A DNA stretch of 64,000 bases from Candidatus Omnitrophota bacterium (GTDB taxonomy: Bacteria; Omnitrophota; Omnitrophia; Omnitrophales; Aquincolibacteriaceae): assembly GCA_043732705.1 (NCBI GenBank), contig JAYTHE010000029.1, positions 70,445 to 134,444 on the forward strand, read 5' to 3'. Shown piece by piece: positions 10,496 to 62,800 of the stretch. A model generated the notes under the pieces. The model was not told the origin of the DNA, searched no databases, and worked only from the letters and a program-made list of their open reading frames with translations. Position numbers and translations under genes: made by a program. Positions within the stretch are counted from its first letter, which is position 1, and every line of letters starts with the position of its first letter.

Positions 10496-10537
10496 AATTC
10501 TTTTCCTTAAACTTTACTTAACCTTTTTAGCACTTAT

Positions 10538-10570
10538 ACGATTGCGCTTTAGCGCAGAGCAAAACAATAC
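10538..10570. repeat. PE (rpsH-rplF spacer)
   Basis: acgattgcgctttagcgcagagcaaaacaatac. Confidence 0.8.
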
Positions 10571-10578
10571 AGACAGCG

Positions 10579-10977
10579 TTACCAAACTGTGCAAATAAAT
10601 TCGCCGCCAACATTCATTTCTTTGGCCTGACGATCGGTCATAAGACCTTTTGAAGTCGAAACAATCGCGACGCCAAAACCACCCTGAACATGCGGAACTT
10701 TTTTAACACCAACATAGCGGCGCAATCCGGGAGTCGAAATACGGCGGATCCCCTGAATCGCAGGCTTGCGGCCTTTAACATATTTTAAATGAACGCGCAC
10801 AAACTTCTTGGCGCCTTCTTCAAAAACCTTCGAGCCTTGAATAAAACCTTCTTTTTCAAGGATCTCAAGAATCTTGACCGCAACGTTCGAAGAAGGAGTG
10901 GTGACCTTGTCCAAACGCGCCTGAGATGCATTGCGCAAAACCGTTAAAAAATCACCTACAAAATCACTTTGAGACAT
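10579..10977 (-). CDS. rpsH: 30S ribosomal protein S8
   Basis: 132 aa, DFVGDFLTVLRNA... Confidence 0.95.
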   Translation of the reverse strand: MSQSDFVGDFLTVLRNASQARLDKVTTPSSNVAVKILEILEKEGFIQGSKVFEEGAKKFVRVHLKYVKGRKPAIQGIRRISTPGLRRYVGVKKVPHVQGGFGVAIVSTSKGLMTDRQAKEMNVGGEFICTVW

Positions 10978-41849: not shown

Positions 41850-43335
<1,486 letters not shown>

Positions 43336-43337
<2 letters not shown>

Positions 43338-43451
43338 TATTTGCCTCTGCGTTGTTTTTTAGTCTCTGCGTTTCACGCAACCGACAATAAAAATAACGCA
43401 ATTGGCAAAAACAAATTCCGGTTGCGCTTTGGCGCAGAGGAAAAAGAATAC
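43336..43451. repeat. PE x3 (one half, one inverted, one direct) in atpD-atpC spacer
   Basis: atatttgcctctgcg ; gtctctgcgtttcacgcaaccgac ; tccggttgcgctttggcgcagaggaaaaagaatac. Confidence 0.8.
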
Positions 43452-43453
43452 AG

Positions 43454-43714
43454 ATGAGCTACAACCTACAGATCATTACACCGCAGGGAAAAGTTTACGA
43501 TGCTGAGGTCGAGCATGCACAGGTTCCGGGCGATCCCGGCTCCTTCGGCGTGCTTTCCAATCATGCGGCGCTTATCTCCTCTTCAACGGGCGGCAAGCTG
43601 TCAATCCGCGAAAAAGGCGGCAAAAACAGCTCTTTTACCGTAGGCGCAGGATTTTTTGAAACCCGTAAGAATCAGGCCGTATTTTTGGCCGAATCTTTTG
43701 CGGAACGTACCTAA
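43454..43714 (+). CDS. atpC: F0F1 ATP synthase subunit epsilon, short form (N-terminal beta-sandwich only)
   Basis: 86 aa MSYNLQIITPQGKVYDAEVEHAQVPGDPGSFGVLSNHAAL; lacks C-terminal helical hairpin. Confidence 0.8.
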   Translation: MSYNLQIITPQGKVYDAEVEHAQVPGDPGSFGVLSNHAALISSSTGGKLSIREKGGKNSSFTVGAGFFETRKNQAVFLAESFAERT

Positions 43715-43717
43715 TCA

Positions 43718-44218
43718 ATGAAAGCGCTTTTCTTCTGGCTCTTTTCGGTCATTTCTGTCGTCAGTGCGCTGAGTATTTTATTTGTAAGACGGCCCACACG
43801 CGCTTTGCTCGGCCTTCTGGTTTCCATGCTTTGCTTAAGCGTACTTTATACTTTGCTGCATGCCTATTTCGTTGCCATCGTGCATTTGATTGTCTATGCC
43901 GGTGCGGTCATGGTACTTTTTCTTTTTGTGATCATGCTGCAAGGTTTAGGCGCTACAACACTTCCGCTTCTCGAGAGATTCAATAAAGGTCATTTGATTT
44001 TGACCGTTCTTTCTGGTGCGATATTTGTGACACTTTTAACCGTTATTTTTTCAAACGCCAAGCTGCCTGCCTTACAAAATCCGGAAGGCACGGTAGAAAA
44101 CTTAGGGCACATTTTGTTTTCCAATTATATTCTGCCCTTTGAACTTATTTCCGTTTTGGTTCTTCTGGGTATTTTTGCCGCCGTAACCTTAGCAAAAAAT
44201 GAAAGGGCGGCGGCATGA
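43718..44218 (+). CDS. nuoJ: NADH-quinone oxidoreductase subunit J
   Basis: 166 aa, 5 TM, NuoJ-like N-terminus. Confidence 0.85.
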   Translation: MKALFFWLFSVISVVSALSILFVRRPTRALLGLLVSMLCLSVLYTLLHAYFVAIVHLIVYAGAVMVLFLFVIMLQGLGATTLPLLERFNKGHLILTVLSGAIFVTLLTVIFSNAKLPALQNPEGTVENLGHILFSNYILPFELISVLVLLGIFAAVTLAKNERAAA

Positions 44219-44523
44219 CAACTATCCCTTCTGAATATTATTTAGTCTTGGCCGGCATTCTTTTTTCCATCGGTCTTTTCGGGATTTTACTGCGCCGTAA
44301 CATCCTGATTATTCTTTTGTGTCTGGAACTGATGCTGAATGCCGCAAATCTTGTTTTAGTCACCGCCTCTTCGGTTCATGGCCATACTGACGGCCAAATT
44401 ATGGCCTTTTTTGTGATGGTGATTGCCGCGGTGGAAGTCACTATCGGCCTCGCGATTGCTGTTTTACTTTTTAAAGAAAAAAATACCGTCGACACCGGAG
44501 AGATTACATCTCTCAAAGGTTAA
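44215..44523 (+). CDS. nuoK: NADH-quinone oxidoreductase subunit K
   Basis: 102 aa, LCLELMLNAANL motif. Confidence 0.9.
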   Translation: MTTIPSEYYLVLAGILFSIGLFGILLRRNILIILLCLELMLNAANLVLVTASSVHGHTDGQIMAFFVMVIAAVEVTIGLAIAVLLFKEKNTVDTGEITSLKG

Positions 44524-44615
44524 AACTTAAAAGTCAAAACTCAAAACCTAAAACTTGCTCGAACAACTTTGGGTTCCAAGCTATGGTTTTAAGATTTTAG
44601 ATTTAAATTTTGAGC
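44522..44615. repeat. ~90-bp palindromic MITE-like element (nuoK-nuoL spacer)
   Basis: aaaacttaaaagtcaaaactcaaaacc ... gctatggttttaagattttagatttaaatttt; arms mutually reverse-complementary. Confidence 0.6.
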
Positions 44616-44620
44616 TTATT

Positions 44621-46594
44621 ATGCTGAGTTTATGTTGGACAATTTTGGGATTGCCGCTTGCCGCTTCCGCGGTGATTTCGCTTTTATTAATTCCCGCCGA
44701 AAAGGCCGCTAAAGATAAACATTTTTTCCGCACAGCATCTGCCTTTTTGTCCGTTCTTTCGATGGCAGCCGCATTCGGCTTAAGTCTTTTGCTTCTGCAG
44801 AACTTCCGCAGCATTGAAAACCATAGCGAGGTTTTTGAAACTTCCCTGAATTGGATGACTTTACCGCAATTCCGGATTGAAATCGGTTTGCTTCTCAATA
44901 ATCTTACATTGCTGATGCTTTTAATTGTGACCGGCGTATCTTTACTCGTAGCACTATTCTCCTCCCGGTACATGAAAGGCGAAGAGGGCTATTCCCGTTA
45001 TTTTGCCGCGCTTTCTTTTTTTGCTTTTTCAATGCTCGGAATCGTGCTTTCCAATAATTTGATCCAGATTTTTATTTTTTGGGAATTGGTCGGTGTGGCT
45101 TCTTATCTTTTAATCGGTTTCTGGTTTGAAAAGCCTTCGGCCAGCATCGCATCAAAAAAAGCTTTTCTCGTAACGCGTATCGGTGACGTTGGCATGATGC
45201 TTGGCATTCTGCTTTTGCTCGGGCTATTACTCAAATCCGGCACTGGTACATTTAACTTTCTTGAGTTGGAAACAAGACTGCATCAGTCTGCTTTACCGGC
45301 CGGGCTTTTCACCTTGGCCTGCATTGGTATTTTTTTCGGAGCCGTTGGTAAATCGGCGCAGGTGCCTTTGCATGTTTGGCTGCCGGATGCGATGGAAGGT
45401 CCGACACCGGCCAGTGCATTAATCCACGCCGCGACCATGGTTGCTGCGGGCGTGTTCATGCTTGCCCGTCTTTTCTTTTTATTTGAAATGAGTCCAGTAA
45501 CACTGCAAATCATAGCTTGGACCGGTATTATCACCGCTTTTCTCGCGGCATCCATTGCTGTTGTTCAAAATGACATTAAAAAGGTACTCGCCTACTCCAC
45601 GCTTTCGCAGCTGGGATATATGGTCATGGCCGTCGGCCTTAAAAACCCCGAAGCCGGAATGTTTCATTTAACAACCCACGCTTTTTTCAAAGCCTTGCTC
45701 TTTCTTGGCGCCGGCAGTTTGATCCATGCTCTGCACACGCAGGATATATGGGAGATGTCGGCACTGGTCCGTTCCGACCAAAGTCATTCTGCCTCTGCGT
45801 CTTCGACGCAACCGGCACATCGCAGCTGGCTAAAAACTATTCCTATCACAGGTCTTACTTTTCTAATCGGAACTGCCGCGCTTGCAGGGCTTCCTTTTAC
45901 GAGCGGTTTTTTCAGCAAAGAAGAAATTCTCGGTGCGGCTTCGACCGGTCCCCGCATTGTTTTTGGAATGGCACTTGCGGTTGTTTTTCTGACAGCTTTC
46001 TACATGGGCCGCGCTGTTACAATTATCTTCTGGAGCTCCGCTCCAACCAGACACCCTCAAAAACATGTGGAAATACATGAAGATAATTGGATGATTACTG
46101 TTCCGCTGCTTATCCTCGCTGTTTTTTCTTTAATTGCCGGCTATTTACCTTTCAAATCATTTTTAGAGAATCAAACAGCGCATGCTGAAATTCATCCGCA
46201 GTGGCTGGCTGCGGCTTCAGTCACCCTTGCTTGCTGCGGACTTTTACTCAGTTTTGTTCTTTACCGCCGGTCTTCTTCGCCTCTGAGCCAAGGGCTCAAC
46301 CGGAAAAACCTCCTAACTCAACTCGTCACATTTCTTAAAGAAAAATATTATTTCGATAAATTCTATGACTGGTTCATCATTCATGTTCAGGAAAATATCG
46401 CGCGTGCCGCGGACAACTTCGAACGTGTCGTGCTTGAACGCGGCGGCAATCAAGGTTTGGCGGGTTTAACGCAATTTCTGGGAAATACAGCGCGTAAATT
46501 ACAAAACGGCTGGATCCAAAGCTATGCTCTTGTTTTCGCAATCGGCTTTATTGCATTGGTTGCTTATCTTGTATTTTGCGGAGCAAAGTTATGA
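44621..46594 (+). CDS. nuoL: NADH-quinone oxidoreductase subunit L
   Basis: WLPDAMEGPTPASALIHAATMVAAG motif; start moved to ATG 44621 after the MITE-like spacer element. Confidence 0.9.
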   Translation: MLSLCWTILGLPLAASAVISLLLIPAEKAAKDKHFFRTASAFLSVLSMAAAFGLSLLLLQNFRSIENHSEVFETSLNWMTLPQFRIEIGLLLNNLTLLMLLIVTGVSLLVALFSSRYMKGEEGYSRYFAALSFFAFSMLGIVLSNNLIQIFIFWELVGVASYLLIGFWFEKPSASIASKKAFLVTRIGDVGMMLGILLLLGLLLKSGTGTFNFLELETRLHQSALPAGLFTLACIGIFFGAVGKSAQVPLHVWLPDAMEGPTPASALIHAATMVAAGVFMLARLFFLFEMSPVTLQIIAWTGIITAFLAASIAVVQNDIKKVLAYSTLSQLGYMVMAVGLKNPEAGMFHLTTHAFFKALLFLGAGSLIHALHTQDIWEMSALVRSDQSHSASASSTQPAHRSWLKTIPITGLTFLIGTAALAGLPFTSGFFSKEEILGAASTGPRIVFGMALAVVFLTAFYMGRAVTIIFWSSAPTRHPQKHVEIHEDNWMITVPLLILAVFSLIAGYLPFKSFLENQTAHAEIHPQWLAAASVTLACCGLLLSFVLYRRSSSPLSQGLNRKNLLTQLVTFLKEKYYFDKFYDWFIIHVQENIARAADNFERVVLERGGNQGLAGLTQFLGNTARKLQNGWIQSYALVFAIGFIALVAYLVFCGAKL

Positions 46595-46613
46595 CACTGC
46601 ACGGGACACATTT

Positions 46614-48071
46614 ATGATTGCGGCATTACCTTTCATTCCTTATTTAGCAGCATTGGCAATTCTTTGCGTTCCGGCTGCAAAGGAAAAACTTTTACGCTGG
46701 CTTACGATCGGTGCAACCGGTGCTTGTTTGCTGATCACGCTGGTTTTAACGCAGCATTTTGACCGTACACTTCCAGGCTTTCAATTTGTTCATTCCTGGG
46801 ATTGCTTTGCAGAAATGGGCATCCGTTATCAGGTCGGACTTGACGGTATTAATCTTATTTTCTGCCTGTTGCTGGCCATTGTCGCTTTTGCCGGTGCTTT
46901 TATTGCTGTCAAAACAAAAAATCGCCTGAAAGAATATCTTTTTTATTATTTGATCTTAACGGGCAGCATGTTTGCCGTTTTTACAGTATTGAATGTTTTC
47001 TTCTTATATGTCTTTTATGAAATGACTTTGATCCCGGTTTTTGCAATGTTAGGAATCGCAGGTCATCCGGCGCTGAAAGAAAAAGGCGCGATGCATCTTG
47101 CGCTTTATATGATGGCCGGCGCAGTGATCGGCCTTTTCGCAATATTTAACTTATACGATATTCTCGGCCCGGCCTTCATGGACCTAACCCAGGCCAAGGC
47201 AGTTGCACTTTCTAATGCGCCATTATTAACGCCCGATGTTCAGAAGTGGCTCGCCGCGCTTTTGATTGTCGGTTTCGGCATCATGACTTCACTTTGGCCG
47301 CTTCATAACTGGTCGCCTTCCGCTTATGCCGCTGCGCCATCGTCTTTGTCCATGCTGCATGCCGGAGTAAAAATTGGTCCATATTTTCTGCTGCGCATTG
47401 CAATCGCTTATTTGCCGGCCGGCTTTCAGTTTTGGGCGCCTTCTTTAGCCGTTCTCGCGACCATCGGCGTAATCTACGGCGGTTTTGCAGCCATTCGCCA
47501 AAAGAGCTTGAATACGATGGCGGCTTTTTCAAGTGTCAGCCACATAGGCTATGTTTTGCTCGCTTTAGCGGCCCTCAATCTGACTTCATTATCCGCAGGA
47601 ATCCTGCTTATTTTTGGCCACGGGATCATGACCGCTTGTCTGTTCGGTTTGATCGGGCATTTAACCGCACAAGCCCATACGGACGGTATTCACGAATTCG
47701 GCGGACTCGGCAAATCACTCCCTTTCTTTTCTGTCTGTTTTATGCTGACCTCGCTGGCGTCATCGGGAATTCCGGGCTTTGCTAATTTTCCTGCGGAACT
47801 TTTAGTTTTTCTGAGCTCCTGGAAAAATTTTTCGGCCGCGGTTATTTTTGGAGTTTTTGGAGTTTTGATCACAGCGATTTATATGATCCGTGCGGTTCAG
47901 GCGCTTTGCTTCGGTACGGAAAGCAACCGCTCAAAAAACTTAACAGACATGACAACACTCTTTGATAAAACACCTTTTCTGATTTTATTGGCCGTGCTTT
48001 GCTTTTTCGGATTTTTTCCAAGCGCGCTCTTATCGATTATTCAACCGGCAGTCACAAGGCTTTTATCATGA
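46614..48071 (+). CDS. nuoM: NADH-quinone oxidoreductase subunit M
   Basis: antiporter-like; start MIAALPFIPYL. Confidence 0.9.
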   Translation: MIAALPFIPYLAALAILCVPAAKEKLLRWLTIGATGACLLITLVLTQHFDRTLPGFQFVHSWDCFAEMGIRYQVGLDGINLIFCLLLAIVAFAGAFIAVKTKNRLKEYLFYYLILTGSMFAVFTVLNVFFLYVFYEMTLIPVFAMLGIAGHPALKEKGAMHLALYMMAGAVIGLFAIFNLYDILGPAFMDLTQAKAVALSNAPLLTPDVQKWLAALLIVGFGIMTSLWPLHNWSPSAYAAAPSSLSMLHAGVKIGPYFLLRIAIAYLPAGFQFWAPSLAVLATIGVIYGGFAAIRQKSLNTMAAFSSVSHIGYVLLALAALNLTSLSAGILLIFGHGIMTACLFGLIGHLTAQAHTDGIHEFGGLGKSLPFFSVCFMLTSLASSGIPGFANFPAELLVFLSSWKNFSAAVIFGVFGVLITAIYMIRAVQALCFGTESNRSKNLTDMTTLFDKTPFLILLAVLCFFGFFPSALLSIIQPAVTRLLS

Positions 48072-49489
48072 GCAGCTTAGGCCTTTCTCATTTTATTCCG
48101 GATTTAATCAGCGTCGGACTGCTGGCTTATTTCCTGACTGAAGCCATCATCACGGGACAAAAAGACCACCGTTCTATTTTCAATCCTTTGGCCGTAGGAA
48201 CCGTAATTCTCGGCGCCGCGCTTTTCTTTTTCGGACGTAATACCGGCACGGGCTTCGGCGGAATGGTTTCAAACGATCTTTTTGCGCTTTATTTTAAAAC
48301 TTTCTTTACGCTGGTCTTTTTCGTGATTGTTTTCATATGCCGTGATTTCTTCAAGGATTCGGCCGCCAAACAGCAAGAATTCGGATTAATTCTCTGGTGC
48401 CCGTTGATCGGCCTTTATTTTCTCGCTTCCGCTTCCCATTTCTTGATGCTTTTCATAGCGCTTGAAATATTGACCATGGCTATTTACCTGCTTGCCGCTT
48501 ACAGCCGGCGGACGATTTCAGTTGAAGCAGGCCTTAAATATTTAATGATGGGATCAATCGCTTCGGGTTTTACGATTTTCGGAATCGCATTGCTTTATAT
48601 GCAAACCGGCACACTTTCATTCGCGGAAATCGCAGCCGTAAAACAAACTTTATTCGCCAGCCGCCTAGGTTTGCTGGCGCTGCTTTTTATTTTTGCGGGA
48701 TTGGGATTTAAAGCGGCAACCTTTCCTTTTCAGCTTTGGGTTCCGGACGTTTATCAAGGTTCGCCGGCGCCCGTTTCCGCACTCATGTCGGTTGCTTCCA
48801 AAGCCGCGGGATTTTTGCTGATCATTCGTTTTTTTGGCATGACAGTCGGGCCATTGAATGCGCATTGGAAAATGGCTTTGTCCGTGTTGTCTCTTTTTAC
48901 TTTGCTCTACGGTAATTTGGGTGCTTTGGCACAAACGAGCTTTAAGCGCCTCATGGGCTATTCCAGCATCGGCCATGCGGGTTATTTGATGCTTGCCATT
49001 GCCTCAGGCACAGCTTCAAGCACAGCGGCCATCTTGTATTACTTCACGGGTTACGCAGCAAGTACTTTGGCTGTTTTTTATGCCATTACCTTGGTTGAAA
49101 AAGCAATAGGCTCGGATTCAACCGAAAATTTTGAGGGCCTTTCAAAAACATCGCCTTTCCTTTCCGCTGTCCTTTTTATTGCACTTTTATCTTTAGCCGG
49201 TGTTCCACCGCTTGCAGGCTTTATGGGGAAATTCTGGATTCTCTTTTTAGGACTACAGGCAGGTTTAGGATGGCTTGTGTCGGCCGGACTGGTAATGGTT
49301 GTGGTAGGGCTCTATTATTATCTTTCGATCGCAATCAAAATGATTTTTCGCGAACCGAAACTTAAGGCGGAAATTCAAATTTCAATTTCAGCTAAATTAA
49401 TTCTTTGTGTTTTAACCCTTCTCTCGCTCAGCATGGGATTGTTGCAGGCGCCGCTAATTCGAATCGCCGCGGCCGCCATCGGCCGATAA
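48068..49489 (+). CDS. nuoN: NADH-quinone oxidoreductase subunit N
   Basis: antiporter-like; ATGA overlap with nuoM. Confidence 0.85.
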   Translation: MSSLGLSHFIPDLISVGLLAYFLTEAIITGQKDHRSIFNPLAVGTVILGAALFFFGRNTGTGFGGMVSNDLFALYFKTFFTLVFFVIVFICRDFFKDSAAKQQEFGLILWCPLIGLYFLASASHFLMLFIALEILTMAIYLLAAYSRRTISVEAGLKYLMMGSIASGFTIFGIALLYMQTGTLSFAEIAAVKQTLFASRLGLLALLFIFAGLGFKAATFPFQLWVPDVYQGSPAPVSALMSVASKAAGFLLIIRFFGMTVGPLNAHWKMALSVLSLFTLLYGNLGALAQTSFKRLMGYSSIGHAGYLMLAIASGTASSTAAILYYFTGYAASTLAVFYAITLVEKAIGSDSTENFEGLSKTSPFLSAVLFIALLSLAGVPPLAGFMGKFWILFLGLQAGLGWLVSAGLVMVVVGLYYYLSIAIKMIFREPKLKAEIQISISAKLILCVLTLLSLSMGLLQAPLIRIAAAAIGR

Positions 49490-49494
49490 TTTTC

Positions 49495-49872
49495 TCAAGC
49501 GTTACCGCGCGGCTTCCAAAACTGCGCCTGTGAAATTACGCCTTCGGCATGAAGCGCCTCGATTAATTCATTGCCTGTTTTTGGCAGTGCAATTACGCGT
49601 CCATTTTTAAAAAGAATCATGGCCGTTTCGGCGTATAAAAAATTACCGAGGCGGTATTCCCAAAGCTCATACGAATTGGGGCCATATGGCATCATCGAAA
49701 CAATATGCGGCGGGCCTTCTAAAGTATATTGAACCTGCTCGGGAGTATTGCCGATTTGAATACTGCGCATGCGGTCAAAAACATAGGCGCGCGTCGTGGC
49801 ATCAGGAATCATCGTGCAGCCTGAAAAAATGAAGTTTCCCAATAAAATTAACAATATAAATTTATTTTTCAT
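49495..49872 (-). CDS. putative lipoprotein
   Basis: MKNKFILLILLGNFIFSGC lipobox. Confidence 0.5.
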   Translation of the reverse strand: MKNKFILLILLGNFIFSGCTMIPDATTRAYVFDRMRSIQIGNTPEQVQYTLEGPPHIVSMMPYGPNSYELWEYRLGNFLYAETAMILFKNGRVIALPKTGNELIEALHAEGVISQAQFWKPRGNA

Positions 49873-50255
49873 GAAATAAGGCTGGAAACAATCAGCATAA
49901 AAATACCCGCCGCGGCCCCGCAACCCAAAATAATCGCGAAAATAATGCGTCGATCCCAAATATAAATAAAGGCCCGGCGCCAATGCAAATAAGAAATGTA
50001 AAAAAAAATAAACTTAGCGGCACTTAATGTCAGAATTCCCGCCGCAAGAAAAGATACGGGATGCGCGGCCTGATAAAAACAAGCCCAGGCCAAGAGCGCC
50101 AAGGTCATGTAAGCCCAGCAAATCAAACCTAACCAAATCGGCCGTTCCTCCGGGAAAACTTTTTCGCCAATAGTTCTCCCCAACAAACAAAAGCCTATGA
50201 CAGACCAGCTCAGTGTAATTAAACCCGCAATGAAAGTTAATAAAGACAATGTCAT
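49869..50255 (-). CDS. hypothetical 4-TM membrane protein
   Basis: 128-aa hydrophobic ORF, 4-nt overlap with downstream lipoprotein gene. Confidence 0.45.
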   Translation of the reverse strand: MTLSLLTFIAGLITLSWSVIGFCLLGRTIGEKVFPEERPIWLGLICWAYMTLALLAWACFYQAAHPVSFLAAGILTLSAAKFIFFYISYLHWRRAFIYIWDRRIIFAIILGCGAAAGIFMLIVSSLIS

Positions 50256-50326
50256 GCTATTTTAACTATTTGCTGAAATAAAAAAGGGGGATGGGTTAAA
50301 ACCCATCCCCCATTCTTTCAATTGAG

Positions 50327-50989: not shown

Positions 50990-51223
50990 TTAAAGATTTT
51001 TTTCAATTTTTTTGCCGTTTTTAAGTCTTTTCCAGCCCTCGATAAGCAGCGAAACGGCAATCAAAAAAGTCCCTAAAAAGCCGGTTAAGGCAAATAACAA
51101 AGTCTTTTGGGATCCGCACCAAAAAGCGGCCGCCAACAATAAAACCGCCGGTACGGCATACCTGCATATATATTGTGAAAAAGTCACTTTTGCGACTGAA
51201 GCGCATGCCGGCAATGCGGGCAT
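50990..51223 (-). CDS. small 2-TM membrane ORF (overlaps upstream ORF; possibly frameshifted continuation)
   Basis: hydrophobic 77-aa ORF. Confidence 0.3.
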   Translation of the reverse strand: MPALPACASVAKVTFSQYICRYAVPAVLLLAAAFWCGSQKTLLFALTGFLGTFLIAVSLLIEGWKRLKNGKKIEKNL

Positions 51224-51558
51224 TCAAGCATCACCTTCAGAACGGGAATACTGCAGCGCGGGCAGCGACGATGCCCCTCGGGCGCAGGGCCATAATGCCA
51301 CCAAATCCACTTTACCAAGGCCGAAAGCAATCCAGCCATGAGAACTCCCAGGATGATCAGTTTCCAGATATTAAGCAATTCCGGATTAAGCTCAAAGTGA
51401 AAGATTTTTTTTACGAGCATGGGCATGAACCAAGCCCATGCCGCAACAACAAGCCACTTGATCACACGTAAAAGCGGCCGCGTGCTTAAATCAATCCACC
51501 CTGCCGCATCCGCGACAAGCAGCATCAGTCCCGCAACTAAAAAAGGCATCCACAGCAT
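51184..51558 (-). CDS. membrane protein with C-terminal Cys4 zinc ribbon
   Basis: CPRC...CPHC motif after 3 TM helices. Confidence 0.45.
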   Translation of the reverse strand: MLWMPFLVAGLMLLVADAAGWIDLSTRPLLRVIKWLVVAAWAWFMPMLVKKIFHFELNPELLNIWKLIILGVLMAGLLSALVKWIWWHYGPAPEGHRRCPRCSIPVLKVMLECPHCRHALQSQK

Positions 51559-51571
51559 AAAAACCTCATCT

Positions 51572-51670
51572 CAAAGGTTAAAAGTAAAATCTGAAAATAT
51601 AACTTAAAGGCCAAAATTATCCGGACAGTTTTTATTTTTGGGCTATGGTTTTAATCTTTAAGATTTAACC
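51572..51670. repeat. left ~100-bp inverted repeat flanking EVE gene (MITE-like family)
   Basis: ...ataacttaaaggccaaaattatccggacagtttttatttttgggctatggttttaatctttaagatttaacc. Confidence 0.7.
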
Positions 51671-52119
51671 TCTAACCTAGTAATAATTTGCCAATGTTTT
51701 TCGGAAACAGGCTGTACAGAAAGCCGGCTGCCTTTTTGTAAAAGCAGCATTCCCTCAAGCCCTGTCATTTTTTTAAGCTCTTCCAAAGATAAAAAACGTT
51801 TAAATTTTTTTACGAAATTTAGATCCACAAGATACCAAGTCGGATTTTCTTTTTTACTTTTGGGATCATAATGCACATCTTTTTTATCAAACGCCGTGGG
51901 GTCAGGATAAGGTTTCCCCGCGACTTTGGCAATGCCGGCAATACCTGATGGCTCAGCATTTGAATAATAAAAGAAAACAAGATCCCCTGGTTTCATTTGA
52001 TCGCGCATAAAATTACGCGCTTGATAATTGCGCACGCCGTCCCACATCGTTTTACCGTCACGGGCAAGATCCTCTATGGAATATACATCCGGCTCGGACT
52101 TCATCAGCCAATAATTCAT
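51658..52119 (-). CDS. EVE (PUA-like) domain protein
   Basis: MNYWLMKSEPDVYSIEDL...WDGVRNYQARNFMR typical EVE N-terminus; flanked by ~105-bp inverted repeats. Confidence 0.8.
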   Translation of the reverse strand: MNYWLMKSEPDVYSIEDLARDGKTMWDGVRNYQARNFMRDQMKPGDLVFFYYSNAEPSGIAGIAKVAGKPYPDPTAFDKKDVHYDPKSKKENPTWYLVDLNFVKKFKRFLSLEELKKMTGLEGMLLLQKGSRLSVQPVSEKHWQIITRLEVKS

Positions 52120-52123
52120 AACA

Positions 52124-52235
52124 ACTTAAAGGTTAAAGCTCAAAAGTCAAAACCATAGCCCGAAACTAAAAACTGTCCGGATAGTTTTGGCCTTTAAGTT
52201 ATAGTTTTAAGCTTTTACCTTTAACTTTTAACCTT
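52124..52235. repeat. right ~105-bp inverted repeat flanking EVE gene
   Basis: reverse complement ~85% identical to 51572-51670, 40-bp core with one mismatch. Confidence 0.7.
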
Positions 52236-52599
52236 TCTTAATTGCCCCTAAAATAAAAAATATCCATCCCGTCATCAAAAGTAGCCCGCCAATTGGCGTA
52301 ACAGCACCAAAGCCGCGAATACCCGTTAGCGCTAATATATAGAGACTGCCCGAAAAAACAATAACCCCAGCCGTAAAACAAGTTCCCGCACGAGAAATAA
52401 GTTTCGAATCGAAAACAGAAACAGCCCAAGAAGCGGCAAGCAGGGCAAAAGCATGATAAGTCTGATAACGCACGCCGGTTTCAAAAATGAGGAGCATTTC
52501 AGAGGACAAATGTTGTTTTAGGGCATGGGCGCCAAAGGCTCCCAACAGAACGCTTAAAAACCCAAACACTGTGCCTGTAATAAACAACATTTTTTGCAT
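52228..52599 (-). CDS. DUF423-family small membrane protein
   Basis: GAFGAHAL motif, 4 TM. Confidence 0.6.
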   Translation of the reverse strand: MQKMLFITGTVFGFLSVLLGAFGAHALKQHLSSEMLLIFETGVRYQTYHAFALLAASWAVSVFDSKLISRAGTCFTAGVIVFSGSLYILALTGIRGFGAVTPIGGLLLMTGWIFFILGAIKKG

Positions 52600-52706
52600 G
52601 GAAGCATTATACAGAAAATATGGAAACCCTGATAGACGACAGCTCCATTTTTGGTTTAAAATATTCGAGATCGTTTTAACCATCTTTTCATCGAGGGAGA
52701 TTCATA

Positions 52707-53224: not shown

Positions 53225-53824
53225 TTACTGCGAGAGAACTTTTTGGAGATCGCGCTTCGCGACAACTTGCGCATAAAGCGGATTGGGATTAAGCAGCTCA
53301 ACAATATCGAGTTTCATACCTTCGCGCGTATAAGACGCCATATCAAGAATCTGCGTATCCATGCGAATCGCGTCTTCGGGACAAGCCTCAACACAAAATC
53401 CGCAAAAAACACATTTTCCAAGATCAATATCAAAACTCTTGGGACGTTTTTCAATATTTACGTCGGGATGTTCCTCCGCCACAATCGTGATGCACTTTGC
53501 GGGACAAACTGTTTCACACATCATGCACGCCACACAGCGCGGTGAATTATCCACGCGTTTGGTTAAACGATGCCGTGTGCGTAATCGCGAAGGTGGCTTG
53601 CGTCGCTCTTCGGGGTACATGATGGTTACACCCGCGCGAATTAATTTAAAAAGCCCAATCGCATGCATCGTGTGAAAAAAAAGATTTTTCCAGAAATGCC
53701 CGCCGGTAATCCATACGCCGCGGATGATTTCAGGAACATAAATCTGCTGCCAGAAGTTGAGTACAGGCCGGTCAACGACCTTGGTTTTTATCGTCATAGG
53801 GATTGGAATTGTAGCACAACTCAC
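53225..53824 (-). CDS. nuoI: NADH-quinone oxidoreductase subunit I (2x[4Fe-4S] ferredoxin)
   Basis: CVACMMCETVCP and CVFCGFCVEACP motifs; GTG start at 53824 or ATG at 53797. Confidence 0.85.
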   Translation of the reverse strand: MSCATIPIPMTIKTKVVDRPVLNFWQQIYVPEIIRGVWITGGHFWKNLFFHTMHAIGLFKLIRAGVTIMYPEERRKPPSRLRTRHRLTKRVDNSPRCVACMMCETVCPAKCITIVAEEHPDVNIEKRPKSFDIDLGKCVFCGFCVEACPEDAIRMDTQILDMASYTREGMKLDIVELLNPNPLYAQVVAKRDLQKVLSQ

Positions 53825-53832
53825 GCTTGGCG

Positions 53833-56800
53833 TTAAGCAGCAGAAAGCGTTAATTGGACGCCAAAGATTTGGGCTGCCAGGGCATCCAAGCCCACACTGT
53901 GAAACAGTTTGGCAATACCTTGGTCCGTGAGAATTCGATAGTCACCCATTTGCCGTAGTAAAGTAACCGTCTCAGAAGAATCATCCTGGCTCATCAAAGC
54001 TGAACGACGCGCATATTTTCCATGCGTTTGTGCGGCTAAGTCTTGCGGACTGACAAAGACCAGGCCTTGTCCCTTGAACCCTTTCGCCTCGATTAAATTT
54101 TTGAATTCCAGCCGTTGCTGTTCGTTTTCAGCATAAATCGCAAACAGTTTATCGCCCAATACTCGTTTATCTTGTAAGAATCCCTTTTGATGCACAAGTG
54201 CAGGACTTAAAACAACCAAATCCGCCGGTGATTTCATAATTTTATCCATAACAGTCGGCAACACCGGAGCACCAAAATATTGCCCATAAAACCTACTAAA
54301 CTCGGAACGCGTCATAGTATTAACAAATGACACTGAAAAAATATTCCTAGCCATTCTGGTGACTTCAATCTGAGATTGCGGCGAAACTATCAGTTCTTTT
54401 GTCCGCATTTCCGAGCGTAGCACTTTATCGGCAGCAACTGCGTTGTCTGGCAAATTCCACCTATAAATTAGTTCACGAATAAGAATACGATTGACCATTG
54501 ACTGCCTTGAAAATTCACGCTGCTGGCCTGGGTTTTTGACTTGTCTCATCAAAGTGAGCGACAACTCTCTGCTGAATGGATTAACAACGTGGTGCACAAG
54601 ACCCATTGCACCATCTTCACTCATTCTATTAAGAACCTCTTCGAGAGATATTCCTCGAAGATCTTGCATTGTTTTCAGCAAAGTCTGAACCTCTTGATCA
54701 TTCAAAAGCTCCGTATTTTTCATGCCATGAAAACGATCCGCCAATGTTTTTTCATCGTCGGAGCCATAAATCCATTGATCTCGAGCCACCAACGAATCTA
54801 AATATTTAGAAAAATTAAACTCCGTTTTTCTTTTTTCTTTTGCATCCCAAGCAAAAAATGATTTTGTTGTAAATGTTGTGTCTCGAGAAGCCGCTTTTAA
54901 GCGTGCCAAAACTAAAGAGAAACTTTGATCTTCGCTGTTTCTCAAAACCTCTTGCGATTCGGAGCGTGGAACGGTCACAGCTGGCGCAGTTTTTATTTCA
55001 AGTGGTTCAATAAAGCCGGTTTGCAAGCTATCACCACTTGGTATCACATGAACTAAAAATCCTTTGCGGGCTCCATCGCTAGCTAGATTTTCTTTCAACT
55101 GCATTTTTAAATTGCCTTTCACACCACTTTTTAGTTTGATTTCTACTGCCTCCTGGTCAACGCTATTGATTTTGATACGAACCAATTTCAAAATCTTTCC
55201 GGTATGGCTCAAATCTTTCCTTTGATCACGCTCAAGCTCTGCTGTAAAAGAAACTTCGAAGCGCGCAGCTTGGGTCCGCACTCCCGGGATAATTCCAAAT
55301 TGATAAATGCCGCTAACCTTAACACGTTTTCCAGGACGAAATAGTCCGCGGCTCGCTACTTGATTATGTAACTCTTCATCACGCGAATTATCGGGGCGCA
55401 AAGTCATAACAACACCAAATCTGTCCGGCGGTTCGCCTCTCGGTCCTTCTCCGTCCCGCGCTTCTGAACGGACACGCTTTGCAATAGCTCTTTTTATTTT
55501 TCCGAATAAAACTTTCCCATCTGGCGATGCAAGATAATGCAAGGTATGCGAATATTCTCCGGGATGTTTCCAAATATCAGTCTCAAAAAAATTAACGGAC
55601 ACGAGGTGAAACTCTTCGATTTCGTTAAGATTGTAATTTTCTTTTATTTTTTTCAACTCGGCATCAGAAACAAAATATAAATACGCCGTTGTAAACTCGC
55701 GATTGACCCCGTCTTCAAGATCATATTCACGATATATACCATTTTGTTTAGTAAGCGGAATGAACCGGTCTGAGTCAATACGAATACCCACTTCCTCTTC
55801 CGCTTCGCGGCCTGCGGCCGCAATCGGCAATTCGCCGAAATCAACATGGCCGTTCACCGAAACCTGCCATTTCCCCTTGGACGAAGCTTTATTCTGACTG
55901 CGTTTTTGAAACAACAATCTTCCTTTTGAGTCTACAAAATAAATATGTGCCGACATGTGATAAAAACCCTTTTTATGCGCCTCGTCTTTCTTTGCTTTGC
56001 GCCCGGAAAGAATATTGCCATGCTTGTCAGTTAAAGCCACCCCTTCAACGGCTTCGCTTGACTCCACCCCCATTTTTCCGCCCTTTAAAATTAAAACATC
56101 CTGCCGCATTTCGGAGCGCGGTGCTGCAAGCCCTTGGCTCGTGAAACCTTCCTGTCTTACGCTCTTTTCTGGTCTCACCTCAGACGGAGGAAGAATGAGA
56201 TCCGCGGGTTCTGCTTGCCGCAATAAATCAAATTGCTGCAGCGCATCCATCAACCCTTGAAATAAACTTTCTTCCTTTTTTTCTTCGGCGCTTAACGCTT
56301 CCATTTGCTGCCGAAAAGCACGGATTTTTTCTTCGACCTGGCGCTGTGCTTCTAAATCGGCTTTGTAGTCTTCATAATCGGCGCGGCCATGCAGATTTTC
56401 GATCATTCGGTTTTGATAATAATCCCGCTGCCATTGCAACTCAGACAGAGAGCCTTCTTTTGGGGCCGCTTGCCTTGCTTGAGTAGATTTTTCTGATTCA
56501 GTCATGTGTTTACGTACCGCTGCCTTTAATGCTTCTTGCCTTTGGTTTGTGAAATTAATATGAAACGGCCCACGAAGAGCTAGGTGACGGACCAAATCTA
56601 AATATTCAACTGTTTCATCCGACAAAGACCGCAGCCAATCTGCGATTCGTTTAAGTCTGGGCAAAGTGTCTTGCAGGAGAGGTTCAAACGAGTCAACCGG
56701 AAAAAATCCACGATTCATATAAGGTGTGGCAAAAAGCGTTGGCTGTCCGACCTTATTTAAAGCAAAGAATACGCCCCGCCCAAACTCGTCTTCTTTCCAC

Positions 56801-59800
56801 AGAGGTACATGGCTGCGAAGCCATTGCGCCGTGTTACGAATCGAAAAATAATTTTTTTTCAACCAACTATTAAGTAATTCAAACTCATGCTGATAAATGT
56901 CAGCCGCTAAAAATTCAAACCATACCGCTCGTCCTCCTTTAAATTGAAACGCATGGTTGTTTGAGCGATGCGCAGAGAAAACAACTTCCCATAAAGGCAT
57001 CAAACAAGCTTGCAGCAGCTGCCCGTCTGCCAATAATCCTTTTGCGGCAATTTGGAACGCAGTCATCGCGGGATTCGCCGTAAGAGCAGCGAATGCCCCT
57101 ATTAAATTTTGCATAAAAATTCGCCGCGTTTGGGAACGATCTAAATAATCTGCCGTGTGCAAAAACAAATCCTCCGCTAGCATCGGAATGCTTTCCACGA
57201 AACGCTGCGGCGACACAATTCGCCGCGCAGGTTCGTTTGCATTCTCGGCCTTTATTTTTTCAAAAACGGGCTGCCAATACGCAAACGCAAAGGGCTGTTT
57301 TGAAAGAAACTCTGAAAATTCTTCCGCAAGAGCGTCCTTCACTTCAAGCTTGGGCATTTTGAAACGCAGCCATTTCACTAAAAACTTGTTTTCTTCCCTT
57401 TGAATTTTTTCATGAATAAACCTTTCCGCGAGCTTAAGCAATGCCTGTTTATTCCCGACATCATCTCCCCCAACAATCAGCTCATTACGCATTTCGGAGC
57501 GTGCCATTTCCCGGTAAAGCGCAAAATGCTTTTCGGCATTCGCTTGCTGCGAAAAACTTTGAACTGCAAAAGCGCGCCCCGCTTTCCCCATAGCTCTGCG
57601 TTTTTCCGGATGATCCGCCAAATCCAAAATTGCTTCGGCCATCGCTTCTCTATCGCCTTGCTTCACAAAAACTCCCGCATCCGGGCTCAACGCTTGATCA
57701 ACGCCTTCGGCCTCATAGCTCACAACCGGAACTTCCATCGCTCCCGCCTCGATCGCCATCAATCCCAAAGATTCATAGCGCGTCGGAAACACGACTAAAT
57801 CGCTTGCGCGATAACCTTCGCGCACTACCGTTGGCGATCCCGCCGGCAGTATTTGAAAACAATCTTCTAAGTTTTCTCTTCTGATCCCTACAGCAACCGC
57901 GAGATTAATCTCACGGTTTTCATCTTGAGGCCCCATCAATACAAACTGGAATTTAAAATCAGGCCGCTTCTCCCTCAAAATTCTGGCGACTTCAATCAAT
58001 TCTGGCTGGTTTTTTTGTTTGCTGAACCGTGCAGGATAGAAAATCATGAATCGGTCTTTTTTATCGCCCAACATCTTTTCTCTGGCTTTCGCGCGATCTA
58101 CTTTTGCCGGATCTTCAAAATCAGTATCAATGCTGGCTTTGATTAAACGGGTCCTTGAGTCCCGCAATCGCGGAAGAGCAACGGTCGTATACCCGACCAA
58201 AACAGGCACAAGCCATGGCGCGGCCAAATTAAAAATCAAACGGATAACCCATTTAAGCGGCCAAAACCAACGCGCTTTGCCGGCATATAATCGATAAGGC
58301 ATATGATTGGTCGTCACAACCGGGATGCGCTTAATCCCAAAAAGCGCAAAATCAAAAGGCGAGTTCATTTGATGTGAATGAATCACATCGACAGGCTCAG
58401 ATCGCGCAATCTCAGAAACAACCGCGCGGATTTTTTTCATCCATCGAAAATCTCCCAATGGAGTATTGGGATAAGATTCAAAATCAGAAATCGGATGAAA
58501 AATCAATGTCCCTTGACCGTGTTTGAGTTCACCCCCTACTGTGTTGGCTTTTTCGGCGCGGTAAACAATATGAATGCGCACGGGATAACGCCGCGTCAGC
58601 TCTTCGTTAAGGCGGTGCACATAAGTCATCATGCCACCTTTGCGTAAAATTTCCCAATCCATGACCTGAACAATTGTCAGTTCGCGAACGGACGAACCTG
58701 CTCTCCGCATTTCGGAGCGGGCGTCCCATTTTTTTCGAAATTCAATCCATGGCTGAAACTGATTGAATTCAAAATGATCGGGAGCGGCGTCCACCCCGCT
58801 TGCTAAGCTCTGAACGGCAGCAATATCACGCCGGTTGGAATGTCCCGAATCCGCGTCCATTGTCCCTTCGATTAAATCAATAATCGCTTTAAAGCTTAAA
58901 TTTGAATTATCCAAATCAATCCAAAACTCGGTTTTGTAATTTGTCATTTCATCGCTCTGATTACCAACTTGAATCCCACGGCGACCATAACGATCGATTA
59001 GTATTCTTTGTTGTTCGGTGGGCAGTCCTGATGAACGGTAATAACTTTCAACTTCTACTTTCGGCTTAATTACATAACTAAACTCATATGCTGAGGGACC
59101 AAAACCGGTCACAATTTCATCGGTATTCAATAGTAGGTTTAACTCCCTAAAAAAATCTTTAACTGCTCCTTCGGTGATCCGTGATTCGGAACGACGATCA
59201 GAAGCTTTTTGATATTTCCAGCGAATTGCATGATCACGCGACACATTGATTAATTTACCTTCCGGCCGGCCTTGTGTATTAAGCAATTTCACCGGAATCA
59301 TTTCCGGCCCGCCGGCTGTGTCTTCTGAAACTTCCAGAACGATGAGTGCATCCACAGTGCCAATAATGATGCGGTCACCCATTTTAAAATCAGTATCAGC
59401 CTCTATATTATAAACGGGGCTATCAGACAAAAATCCATACCGTGATCGTTTAGTAAGAAAACTTATCTTTTCAATTTGGGCCGATGAGCTGTAATCCGCA
59501 TTGCTTTTTTGAGCGCGCGTATCACGATGCAAAAAAAGCAATCGATGCTCAGCGACTGACTTACGGCCTTGGCGCTGATAGGGATTTTCAAGATACCACT
59601 TCGCTAATTTTCTCTGCGGTTCAAGGCTCAGATTTTGAGCCGCCCAAGCAAGCGCGTTATCACGCGCCTTGCGGTCCGCGGGAGAAAACATCTGACCCAA
59701 ATAAATTGCCTCTAAAAGAATTTCAATATACGCAACTGACCAATGATTGTTACGTTTCGCATTTTTCCAAACCTCATCTTTCAGCGGCTTCAATTCATCA

Positions 59801-62800
59801 AAAAGGAATTGAATCGCCTTTTTCCCGCCTGCAAAAGACTGCATCAATGTCCAAGCCCACTTGTCTTCATAATAATCTTCAAGACTTACTACTTTAGACG
59901 GAATAGAAAATTCTAAAATCGCATCCGCGAACGAAAGCGCCTGTTGCGAGATTTGAAACGCAGGACTCATTGCTATTCCGGAGGTAAGATTTGAAGTAAT
60001 CGCTGACAACAAAGCCGTGCGGTCTTTTTTTAAAAATATTTTTTCAAATTTTCTGATGTTTGCTGCCTGTTCAGGAAAAGTTTTTTTAACTCGTTCTATA
60101 TAAGCCCAGTCAACATCACGCATTTCGGAACGACTCACCACACCAGATCTCGGATCTAACGAAACAGATCCGGGATCTGGGGGGGCCAACCGCATTTCGG
60201 AGCGGTCGTTTTGTTTTTTGGAAAGTGATTTGATTTCGTTCCATCGCGGCGGTCGGTTAATAAGGTTCGCAGCAATTGCGGCGAGTCCGTACCCTATAAA
60301 ATCTTTGGGGTCATAAGTCGTCCAAATAAATGCGCTTGGTAGCTGCACATATTTAGTCATTAACTCTTCGAGAGCAAACACAAGCGGAACTCCAACATTC
60401 GAAAGCAATAAGGCTGTCCGCAAATCGGCAAGCCATCCTTTATAAACGAAAATAATTGCGGTCACGCCATACCCAAACAAACTGCACGAAAGAGGGAACA
60501 ATAAATCCGGCAGCCAATCGAGCCATGTCCAATAATTTTCTTTCCCGATCGTTTGGGATCGAAGAACAAGAAGCATCTGATCCCACATTAAAAACGCTCC
60601 GCCGAAGCCCAACATCTTGATTGCATGGCTCAACTGGGTCGAAAAAAGCGCGCGACTCACCGAACTAGATCCCGGATCTAACGGAACAGATCCGGGATCT
60701 GGGGGGGCCAACCGCATTTCGGAACGGGTCCTTTGTTCTTTAAAAAGAGCTTTGATTTCGTTCCATCGCGGTGGCCGGTTAATAAGGTTCGCGGCAATTG
60801 CGGCGAGTCCGTACCCTATAAAATCTTTGGGGTCATAAGCTGTTCCAAGACCCCATTCCGGAACAGGCACCCACTTCGTCACGAGTTCTTCGATCGCAAA
60901 GGCAACTGGAACTCCAATGTTCGTAAGCAATAAGATAGCCCGTAAATCAGCGACCCATCCTTTAAATAAGGCAAAAATGGCTCCCCCGCTATATCCAATT
61001 AAGCTACAACTAAGAGGCACAAATAAATCTGGCAACCAATCAAGCCATGTCCAATAGTTTTCTCTCCCTATCGTTTGGCGCCGTAGCAAGCAAAGCGCTT
61101 CATCGAACACAAAAATGAGCCCACCCCACGTCATCATCCGAATGGCATGTTTAAGTTGCGCAATCGAAAGAGAGCGAATATCTTTGGCTTCTCCTTTGCT
61201 CGGTTTTTTACGCGATTCGGAACGAACGAAGCCGGGTGATGTGATTGAATCTAACCCTCTTATTTCTGATCGGAACTGATAAGCCGTAATGAGCTGCTGC
61301 ATCTGTTCGCCGGGACTTAGTTGTCCGGCCAGTATATTTAAAAATTGTCTTTCGCTTGCATGAAGTTTGTTCAACTCCGCATAAGCCTTTTGCGCCCATT
61401 CCTCGACTGTCCCCGGACTCTCCGCTAAATGAATCTCTCTTAGGGCAGCCTCCGCTCTTATAACCGCATCAATTTGTTTCAATGCGTACGCATGCGAAAA
61501 TTCGGACTCAGAGTGTCCAATCGCGGCCCCTTCGTCTTGTAGCAAATGGAGAATCGCGCGGACCACTGGTAACCTTGCCCATCCGTCCAGGATCTCTTGG
61601 ATGCCGGAAGCGTACACATACCATCGGATGTCACTTTCTGACCAATCCGCACTGCCGGTCCAATCTTTAAACCACTGCCTTAGAAGGTCGTAGCCGTCGG
61701 GGTTGATTTTAAAACCCAGTCCATATTCTGACTGGGTCTCCGGAAAATCAGTTTCGGCTTCGGCAGGTAATTTACTGCGATAGAGCGCGACAGCATCCAA
61801 TATTTTTTTCCGCAATTTTAAATCACCAAGCGCCTCCTCGGCTTTTCGTTTCTGGAGATCTTTTTTAACTTCAGCCGCATACAGTTTTCTATCTTGTTCG
61901 ACCTGCCTGACGTTTACGCAAATACTCACAACAATTCCGGTTTCAGCATGAAGGTAATAGATGCGCCCACCATCTTTTGAAAGCGCGATTTTTTTCCAAA
62001 TATGTCCGTTCGTTTTAAATATTTTTGCGCGCTCCAGACTTTTCACAACCCATAAATTGCCAAAAGATTGGGGCATGTTTTTCGATTGGTTTTGTATTGA
62101 TCCGGAAATAAATTCCCCTTCCTTTATAAACTCACCGGTATCATCCGCTTTGATTTTTAATTCCTGTAATTTTCCTGAAAAAACAGGCGTCTGGACCGTG
62201 GGCAAATAACCAATATAAGTGATTTGCATCATCCCAATACCGGCCGGCCACAAACCATATTTTTGCCCCGCGGCCGCTTGATGCTGAGTTAACGCCGCTA
62301 AAAGCTGCGGGCTAACAAGAGCGGGCGAGGCCGAATTTTCCAATTTCCAATCACGCATTTGCGGTAAAAAGTGATACAGCCGATCCGAGTTTTGGCCTTG
62401 CATGTAAAGATGCACAAGCAAAGTGCGATAAACCAACAAGTCTTGTGCGGATAATTGGTTTAAATCATGCGGATGCCAGCCTGTCGGGTACATGGCATAC
62501 AAAGCAAAGATTTTGGGATCGGTCCGAGTCCAGGTTAAATCATTTGATTGAACGGCAAATCGAAGACGTTTATAGCCTGAAAGATCGGGCCGGCCCGCAT
62601 AAGACTGCATTTCATTTAAAATGGCCAAAACTTGCTTTCTTTTGGGTTCATCCAACTTTTCAAAAAGGTCAATTCCAAACAAGCCTATTTTTAATCTCTT
62701 CAGAATTTCTACGGAATCAAAATGAGTTTGATTATTAAATATGGTTTGCAACTCATGGGCGCGCTCTTCCGGATAAGCCGTGACATACTGCCGCACTTCA

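Follow-up and report, generated by a model that had tools for sequence, protein, structure and literature searches.

A 64-kb stretch of an Omnitrophota genome (64,000 nt of contig JAYTHE010000029.1, assembly GCA_043732705.1; hereafter the window) carries a gene for an EVE-domain protein that lies between two inverted repeats. Are these repeats the ends of a unit that carries EVE, or did each of them arrive at a site of its own? The window was found to hold three copies of an AT-rich imperfect palindrome of 105–120 nt: copy R upstream of EVE, copy L downstream of it and copy K between nuoK and nuoL (Table 1). We consider it probable, at roughly 0.6, that the repeats are independent miniatures, free of any open reading frame (ORF), of a longer hairpin element that carries a PF05635 gene and resembles the intervening sequences (IVSs) of 23S rRNA, and that they sit in intercistronic spacers and persist there as selfish passengers.

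The similarity of copies L and R was measured in three ways. A repeat search returned inverted arms at 51573-51688 and 52113-52228 (116 nt, 78% complementary), a local alignment of 51562-51687 with the reverse complement of 52117-52240 gave 90 identical positions out of 104 (87%), and blastn gave 90.9% identity over 77 nt (E 7e-21). A central block of ~37 nt contained a single mismatch, and the longest exact block common to both copies was 19 nt. The original prediction, made from the sequence alone, had described ~85% inverted identity with a 40-bp core carrying one mismatch, repeats starting close to the EVE start and stop, and a third, related, self-complementary copy between nuoK and nuoL; on all of these points our measurements agree with it. 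Every window copy is itself palindromic over its full length, so any two copies align in both orientations, and each copy matched the family model on both strands (nhmmer, better versus worse orientation: R 119 vs 64, L 107 vs 48, K 85 vs 54 bits). The "inverted repeats bracketing EVE" are thus simply the better of two possible alignments. No fourth copy was found by nhmmer in the 64 kb, nor in the 3.9 kb past its left end.

All three window copies are ORF-less, have arms complementary along the whole length and fill spacers between co-directional genes. Copy K occupies the nuoK–nuoL spacer, reaching from the stop of nuoK (44521-44523) up to 2 nt short of the nuoL ATG (44622), and copy R spans the interval from the DUF423 stop (52228-52230, within the A-rich arm of the element) to 0–2 nt before the EVE ATG (52119). 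Copy L carries the last ~7 codons of EVE and its stop (RLEVKS-stop, stop at 51658-51660) and ends 8 nt from the ATG (51558) of the following 124-aa gene, just outside a GAGG. This RLEVKS-stop end is element-coded and replaces the ends found in relatives. The nuoK C-terminus (LKG-stop) is native and not element-supplied, and the same C-terminus was seen at the empty site of a relative (L012). As RNA, copy R folded at −32.4 kcal/mol on the sense strand (z −2.8).

The family was sought beyond this genome with a pattern based on the 3′ arm. The pattern returned full-length palindromic relatives in metagenome-assembled genomes (MAGs) of Dehalococcoidales and Chloroflexia, partial relatives in two other Dehalococcoidia MAGs, and a match in Planctomycetota that is a long form, as described below. 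A relaxed pattern matched at least 120 metagenome stretches, and nhmmer recovered at least about 50 distinct full-length copies on metagenome and genome contigs, both Chloroflexota and unassigned, with independent contigs scoring E 1e-10 to 1e-21. Two or three copies, counting full-length and partial arm matches, were present on each of L038, L119, L110, L020 and L062. The elements have ~30% GC throughout, in host contigs of 34–62.5% GC. Viral contigs gave two exact pattern matches, neither extending into an element. A search of Rfam 15 returned no family match (at gathering score for the entire window plus 18 loci, and with E allowed up to 10 for 44–53 kb), the best matches being chance-level miRNA-like hairpins at E ~0.5.

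The family consensus reads AAAGCTTAAAAGTTAAAACTTAAAGCTCAAAACCATAACTTAAAAG ... loop ... GTTTTGAGTTTTGAGTTATGGTTTTGACTTTTGAGTTTTAACTTTTGAGTTATT. Its A-rich 5′ arm is built from 7–9-nt units of type AAAGNTNA with the core AAAACCATAAC, and is followed by a short loop and a complementary T-rich 3′ arm with the core GTTATGGTTTTGA. Where both flanks could be assessed, 38 of 42 miniatures sat between co-directional ORFs, and a long ORF began 0–25 nt (mostly 0–8 nt) from one end in 41 of 53 copies. The TATGG-bearing arm faced the downstream start in ~30 copies versus 11; the orientation preference is weak, because the ratio fell to ~2:1 after orthologous copies were collapsed. That copies closely abut upstream stop codons is in part trivial, since the element is full of stops in every frame. 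The flanking genes were unrelated between copies.

Many of the "half" matches proved to be long versions of the element, in which the 5′ arm, an ORF of ~340 nt and the 3′ arm follow one another in that order. Such long forms occur in Patescibacteria, in a Planctomycetota MAG and on unassigned contigs. The ORF of ~125 aa belongs to PF05635 (23S rRNA intervening-sequence protein; E 1e-22 to 2e-25) and to TIGR02436 (four helix bundle protein), with 2RLD and 2GSC as solved relatives. It lies directly upstream of the 3′ arm in 11 loci from five lineages, including the Planctomycetota MAG, all fetched solely through the 3′-arm pattern, and the proteins are 43–60% identical between lineages. The 5′ arm holds the start codon of the ORF and encodes a K/Q/N/S tail of ~18 residues outside the domain model, and the 3′ arm begins immediately past the stop. 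In every long form examined, the two arms paired as a duplex (z −1.4 to −4.1). The arm model also scored the 5′ arm of L055 and L044, which had played no part in fetching these loci. Moreover, three loci picked by protein similarity only (P0249, P0262 and P0299; 64–70% identical) carried the same arms, at 36, 19 and 27 bits; NCBI names the first two as Microgenomates / Patescibacteria and the third as "bacterium", and all three long forms are tightly wedged between co-directional genes. PF05635 was the only ORF found repeatedly between the arms, in at least eight distinct lineages. Other PF05635 subfamilies, found in the same loci, in L010, L056 and L100, and upstream of a 16S gene in L103, had different, equally periodic inverted arms, so the arms and the protein subfamily go together. 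Several miniatures keep the ORF-start motif AAATGTCAAAAC in their 5′ arm.

Some further PF05635 genes were noted in passing. In L010 (8582-8956) such a gene, with the arms AGACCAGAGACTAGAGACAGGAGAC / GTCTCTTGTCTCCTGTCT, lies between the nuoI-like gene and its neighbour, a position at which the window has none. In the region 2205-4755 of L103, a 16S rRNA gene spans 2165 nt against a model of 1533 nt, which amounts to ~630 nt of insertions, and a PF05635 ORF with inverted arms of GTTAGA type lies immediately upstream of the 5′ end of this gene. In L139 (11377-12063) a gene for an IS200/IS605-type Y1 transposase stands ~1 kb from a long form, on a Patescibacteria contig that also has a second PF05635 gene; the Y1 gene may be a coincidence or a lead to the mobility mechanism.

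Filled and empty sites were then compared between the window and three relatives, fetched with their context through EVE homologs: L009, L010 (GCA_043718225.1) and L012 (GCA_964562525.1). The spacer between DUF423 and EVE was filled in the window and in all three relatives. Between nuoK and nuoL, the window and L010 carry an element and L012 has an empty site (GGGTAATTTTTATCATG); the L009 contig stops short of this site. At the junction of EVE with the next gene, an element is again present in the window and L010; the site is empty in both L009 and L012, with the stop of EVE overlapping the ATG that follows. With three copies in the window, dozens elsewhere and presence or absence between relatives, the idea of a dispersed palindromic family resembling miniature inverted-repeat transposable elements (MITEs), as proposed in the original prediction, was borne out.

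The identities between copies did not follow those of the genes. Copy R is 90% identical to its counterpart in L010 and 65–70% identical to those in L009 and L012 (70% for L009), while EVE itself is 92% identical to that of L009 and 87% to that of L010. The K copies of the window and L010, at the same site, are 68% identical. The element of L010 at the site between EVE and the 124-aa gene (10810-10915) has its right junction, TTTTAACCTTTGAGATGAGGTTTT(T)ATG, in common with copy L; the interior of L is inverted relative to this element, 70–75% identical to it and 87% identical to the reverse complement of R. The element histories thus disagree with the gene histories, which points to turnover by re-insertion or gene conversion between copies, and such turnover would explain why the copies on either side of EVE resemble a matched pair in inverted orientation. 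The high similarity of L and R in inverted orientation would be best explained in this way. EVE appears to be flanked by an older upstream copy and a younger downstream copy, at two separate sites of different age. L010 also has an extra 128-aa ORF without family match between EVE and the element (10449-10835), and a remnant of the left terminus of the element (TTAGAGGTT) still stands beside EVE; this suggests either a gene inserted into the element or one lost from the window lineage.

The gene order around EVE was conserved. L010 and L012 have the same order and orientation as the window: a giant ORF, the nuoI-like ferredoxin gene, DUF423, EVE and the 120–124-aa gene, then, on the opposite strand, nuoN-M-L-K-J, atpC and atpD. 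L009 is a short contig that covers only the giant ORF to two genes beyond EVE, and there the order DUF423, EVE, 121/124-aa gene and the orientation of EVE are as in the window. L001, an independent assembly of the same organism, showed the same arrangement as well. EVE has many homologs at 83–92% identity, and the AtpD matches of the window, at 82–90% identity, bear the names Candidatus Omnitrophica or Omnitrophota. Because order and orientation are conserved in relatives, EVE is an ordinary resident syntenic gene and not cargo.

The stem of the element was examined in 35 aligned copies. A hand-drawn stem of 43 pairs had 79.5% of its cells paired, and sliding the register lowered pairing to 25–59%. 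When copies were folded, the mean was ~36 base pairs per copy. Shuffling the partners among sequences left 79.8% of cells paired, against the 79.5% observed; compensatory covariation was not found in these copies, and RNAalifold predicted no consensus structure for them. The consensus itself folded at −56.9 kcal/mol, against −15.2 ± 3.2 for shuffles. The palindrome belongs to the family consensus, and individual copies gather mismatches and half-arm deletions (L117 vs L087, L008 vs L002). The lack of compensatory change would fit selfish, decaying copies of a palindromic master, not host-selected RNAs.

A strand asymmetry was also observed. The forward (ORF-sense) strand folded better in 35 of 47 copies (Wilcoxon p 7e-5), and for the consensus the value above, on the ORF-sense strand, compares with −40.1 kcal/mol on the other strand, owing to G·U pairs. 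This would fit a stem acting in a single strand, most simply the transcript. With orientation called from ORFs, fold stability did not differ between gene-sense and antisense strands (20 of 39); ORF-based strand calls are unreliable beside a stop-rich element, and start-codon proximity and family orientation were used instead. Scans of the window copies for sigma-70 promoters and intrinsic terminators gave counts at or below those of shuffles and no sense-strand site; one promoter-like match starting inside L (51658-51687, + strand) is antisense to EVE.

Some copies depart from the plain design. L130 (1511-1640), L098 (475-601), L022 (2591-2701) and L075 / L051 carry, within the loop or the 5′ arm, a secondary hairpin that is short and GC-rich (e.g., GTCCACGCCAATTGGCGGAC); it looks as if another small palindromic element had been inserted there, nested in the first. 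L103 has a miniature of the window family with a 130-nt AT-only loop (5850-6066).

On the reading that we favour, both forms would insert into transcribed spacers, typically exactly stop-to-start between co-directional genes. By analogy with the rRNA IVSs, the transcript would fold into an AU-rich stem of 40–50 bp that joins both flanks, and RNase III would probably cut or remove this stem, so that the insertion does the operon little harm. The hairpin may also juxtapose the upstream stop and the downstream start, which would make insertion at an operon junction tolerable. The element would then be kept as a selfish passenger, its copies decaying slowly. An obvious candidate for the spreading factor is the cognate four-helix-bundle protein acting in trans, given that the arm sequence is specific to each protein subfamily.

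Several points weigh against this reading. The PF05635 gene is absent from the 64-kb window. The metagenome copies were retrieved with the 3′-arm pattern, and the conservation of a 25-nt stretch among them is there by construction; phylum labels are available for only a few contigs. The comparison of filled with empty sites at the nuoK–nuoL and EVE–124-aa junctions gave no unambiguous target-site duplication, TTA/TAA or GAGGTT being possible and unconvincing. None of the copies examined lies in a 23S rRNA gene, and the Rfam large-subunit rRNA was absent around 18 loci, so that "IVS-like" rests on protein family and architecture, not on location. PF05635 proteins are not known to have a catalytic function or one in mobility. 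The elements have a substrate-like stem of >20 bp, and its cleavage by RNase III is presumed by analogy. Evolution from the long form to the miniature by deletion is assumed, and the ORF might instead have been inserted into pre-existing palindromes.

The elements could alternatively be conventional MITEs, that is, deletion derivatives of an insertion sequence moved at the DNA level by a transposase acting on terminal inverted repeats, with the four-helix-bundle ORF as incidental cargo. This would agree with elements that are small and show inverted symmetry over their full length, that occur several times per genome and whose sites are filled in some relatives and empty in others, and the Y1 transposase gene of L139 stands near a long form in one Patescibacteria locus. 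However, the gene tables of L009-L013, L137, L138 and L141, the loci screened for transposases, show none beside the element sites, and no target-site duplication was found. Moreover, the sole recurrent ORF between the arms is PF05635, with its start codon embedded in the arm, and the arms co-vary with its subfamily. We therefore regard a conventional MITE as unlikely, though the most serious of the rivals. A hairpin selected by the host to tune mRNA stability, processing or translational coupling, as proposed for the repetitive extragenic palindromic (REP) or enterobacterial repetitive intergenic consensus (ERIC) sequences, is less likely still. It would account for the precise stop-to-start placement between co-directional genes, for a DUF423–EVE spacer that keeps its element in four genomes, and for the G·U asymmetry favouring one strand. 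It does not sit well with pairing that survives partner shuffling unchanged, with empty orthologous sites in close relatives, with half-arm deletions, with unrelated flanking genes from copy to copy, or with window copies that lack promoter and terminator signals on the sense strand of the flanking genes.

What then of EVE as cargo? The original prediction saw the gene as captured between two copies or inserted into one, within a composite or invertible cassette that recombination between the copies would flip. The copies are indeed inverted and 87% identical, and the interior of L is inverted relative to the L010 element, so some exchange between copies has occurred. Yet gene order and EVE orientation are identical in the four genomes and in L001, with only one orientation seen in any of them, and the longest exact block that L and R share is 19 nt. 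EVE is co-oriented with both neighbours, and in two of the three relatives the downstream site is empty and EVE overlaps the next gene. Neither capture nor flipping agrees with these data, nothing in the gene context points to the mobile or defence role also suggested for EVE, and we hold the cassette to be very improbable. Least probable of all, the copies might resemble each other by chance, as AT-rich spacers of low complexity, or through a duplication that is purely local. AT-rich sequence with short internal periodicity does inflate alignment identity, but this explanation was rejected on the blastn value for L against R and the nhmmer matches on independent contigs; in addition, the 120-nt architecture recurs in genomes of 34–62% GC, and pairing collapses when the register is slid.

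Among known systems, the hairpin element comes closest, by its architecture and protein family, to the 23S rRNA IVSs of Leptospira, Coxiella, Salmonella and others. An IVS is a stem that may or may not hold an S23p ORF and is excised by RNase III, after which the rRNA fragments stay functional; the origin of IVSs is unknown (PMC4990558). In both cases terminal complementary arms form a long stem, and the loop optionally holds a PF05635 / TIGR02436 ORF, here present in the long relatives and missing from the window copies. Both are AT-rich compared with the host and sporadically distributed, and IVSs too are regarded as selfish (PMC4990558). The present copies differ in lying between protein-coding genes and not in helix 25 or 45 of 23S rRNA, in occurring many times per genome region, and in having arms of 45–55 nt made of short periodic units.

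Other small repeats share fewer features. MITEs such as QMITE of Coxiella and Nezha of cyanobacteria are likewise short, non-coding and multicopy with inverted ends and insertion polymorphism, remodel the 3′ ends of genes and share their ends with a longer relative that bears an ORF. Here, in contrast, the long relative encodes a four-helix-bundle protein and not a transposase, so that the transposase-bearing partner of a MITE is missing; no target-site duplication was found; and the element is palindromic along its whole length, not at its termini alone. The Correia elements or Neisseria miniature insertion sequences (NEMIS), and the ERIC sequences or intergenic repeat units (IRU) of enterobacteria, are also imperfect palindromes of 100–150 nt, co-transcribed to give RNA hairpins in operon spacers, and NEMIS hairpins are RNase III substrates. 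These elements are richer in GC and are not known outside a single genus or family, and Correia elements have a TA duplication and a site for integration host factor. No sequence resemblance to either group was recognised, although no alignment was made, and neither is known to have a PF05635 long form. REP sequences and their doublets (REPINs), mobilised by REP-associated tyrosine transposases (RAYTs), are similar in being abundant, non-autonomous extragenic palindromic doublets forming hairpins of ~100 nt. Unlike them, the present family has no RAYT association save the Y1 gene of L139, lacks the GTAG-type REP head in its alignment, and spans phyla, whereas REP families are lineage-specific and vertically inherited. 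The Avd proteins of diversity-generating retroelements belong to the same four-helix-bundle superfamily (weak bAvd match; PMC10053308), but the gene tables of L010 and L137-L141 show neither a reverse transcriptase nor template/variable repeats beside the long forms. No paper on intercistronic IVS-like elements or their miniatures was found in an incomplete literature search, which covered palindromes in Omnitrophota, MITEs in Dehalococcoidia and mobile elements with PF05635; the relevant papers that it yielded were one on the Coxiella IVS and a survey of diversity-generating retroelements.

Where rRNA IVSs come from, and what their S23p / four-helix-bundle ORF does, have been open questions since about 1990 (PMC4990558). 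PF05635 genes between conserved, subfamily-specific hairpin arms at intercistronic sites bear on these questions, and so do the ORF-less miniatures of a single arm family that are dispersed in genomes of Omnitrophota and Chloroflexota. Together with the filled and empty orthologous sites, these results give a testable picture in which IVSs would be one face of a wider class of mobile elements. Tentatively, and with less confidence than for the window repeats, we suggest that PF05635 proteins and periodic inverted arms may constitute a class of selfish hairpin elements that is large, has gone unrecognised and extends over Patescibacteria, Omnitrophota, Chloroflexota and Planctomycetota. Such elements might enter any transcribed spacer, whether rRNA helices or intercistronic junctions, be tolerated through RNase III removal or neutralisation at the RNA level, and spawn ORF-less miniatures dependent on the cognate arm-recognising protein; on this view the classical 23S rRNA IVSs would be no more than the first special case to attract notice. 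The insertions also matter in themselves: they rewrite the 3′ ends of genes, as with the element-coded residues of EVE, they can split translationally coupled genes, and they mislead annotation and repeat-based inference, of which "a gene bracketed by inverted repeats" is an example.

Table 1. Element copies, genes and other features of the window (positions counted from its first nucleotide).
Feature	Position	Strand	Match or score	Remark
Copy K	44512-44620	ambiguous	nhmmer 84.9 / 54.2 bits, two strands	between nuoK and nuoL
Copy L	51565-51681	+	nhmmer 107 bits	family-forward orientation antisense to genes
Copy R	52120-52238	−	nhmmer 118.8 bits	family-forward orientation is gene sense
EVE-domain gene	51658-52119	−	Pfam PF01878, E 6.8e-61	153 aa
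DUF423 membrane protein gene	52228-52683	−	Pfam PF04241, E 3.8e-29	upstream of EVE
Conserved 124-aa gene	51184-51558	−		downstream of EVE; orthologs of 120-121 aa in L009, L010, L012
nuoK	44215-44523	+	Pfam PF00420	
nuoL	44622-46594	+	Pfam PF00361 / PF00662	start taken as ATG 44622
nuoI-like gene	53225-53824	−	2x[4Fe-4S]	
Giant ORF	53833-63969	−	GT4 glycosyltransferase and NUDIX domains	3378 aa; directly upstream of nuoI-like gene
GC-rich hairpin	50273-50324	−		

The true start of DUF423 is probably internal, because its orthologs are 110–125 aa long. The 124-aa gene gave no match in Pfam and NCBIfam searches, and shares with its orthologs in L009, L010 and L012 the N-terminus MxW...LLxADAxGWIDLxTRP. 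The N-terminus of nuoL aligns with those of L010 and L012 (MLxLCW...LGLPLAA). The giant ORF is a single frame whose exact protein is not on record, and it is larger in relatives at the same place (9185 aa in L010). The strong GC-rich hairpin (GGGGGATGGGTTTTAACCCATCCCCC, then a T run) lies between a 156-aa Ala/Thr/Lys-rich ORF and the next gene; it had only chance-level Rfam matches and looks like an ordinary intrinsic terminator. The complex I genes of the window are split. nuoJ-K-L-M-N follow atpG / atpD on the + strand (41898-50000), and the only other nuo-like gene in 40–64 kb, the nuoI-like one, stands alone on the − strand ~3 kb away; nuoA-H were not among the ORFs of at least 100 aa examined in this interval. 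The same split arrangement is conserved in L010 and L012.

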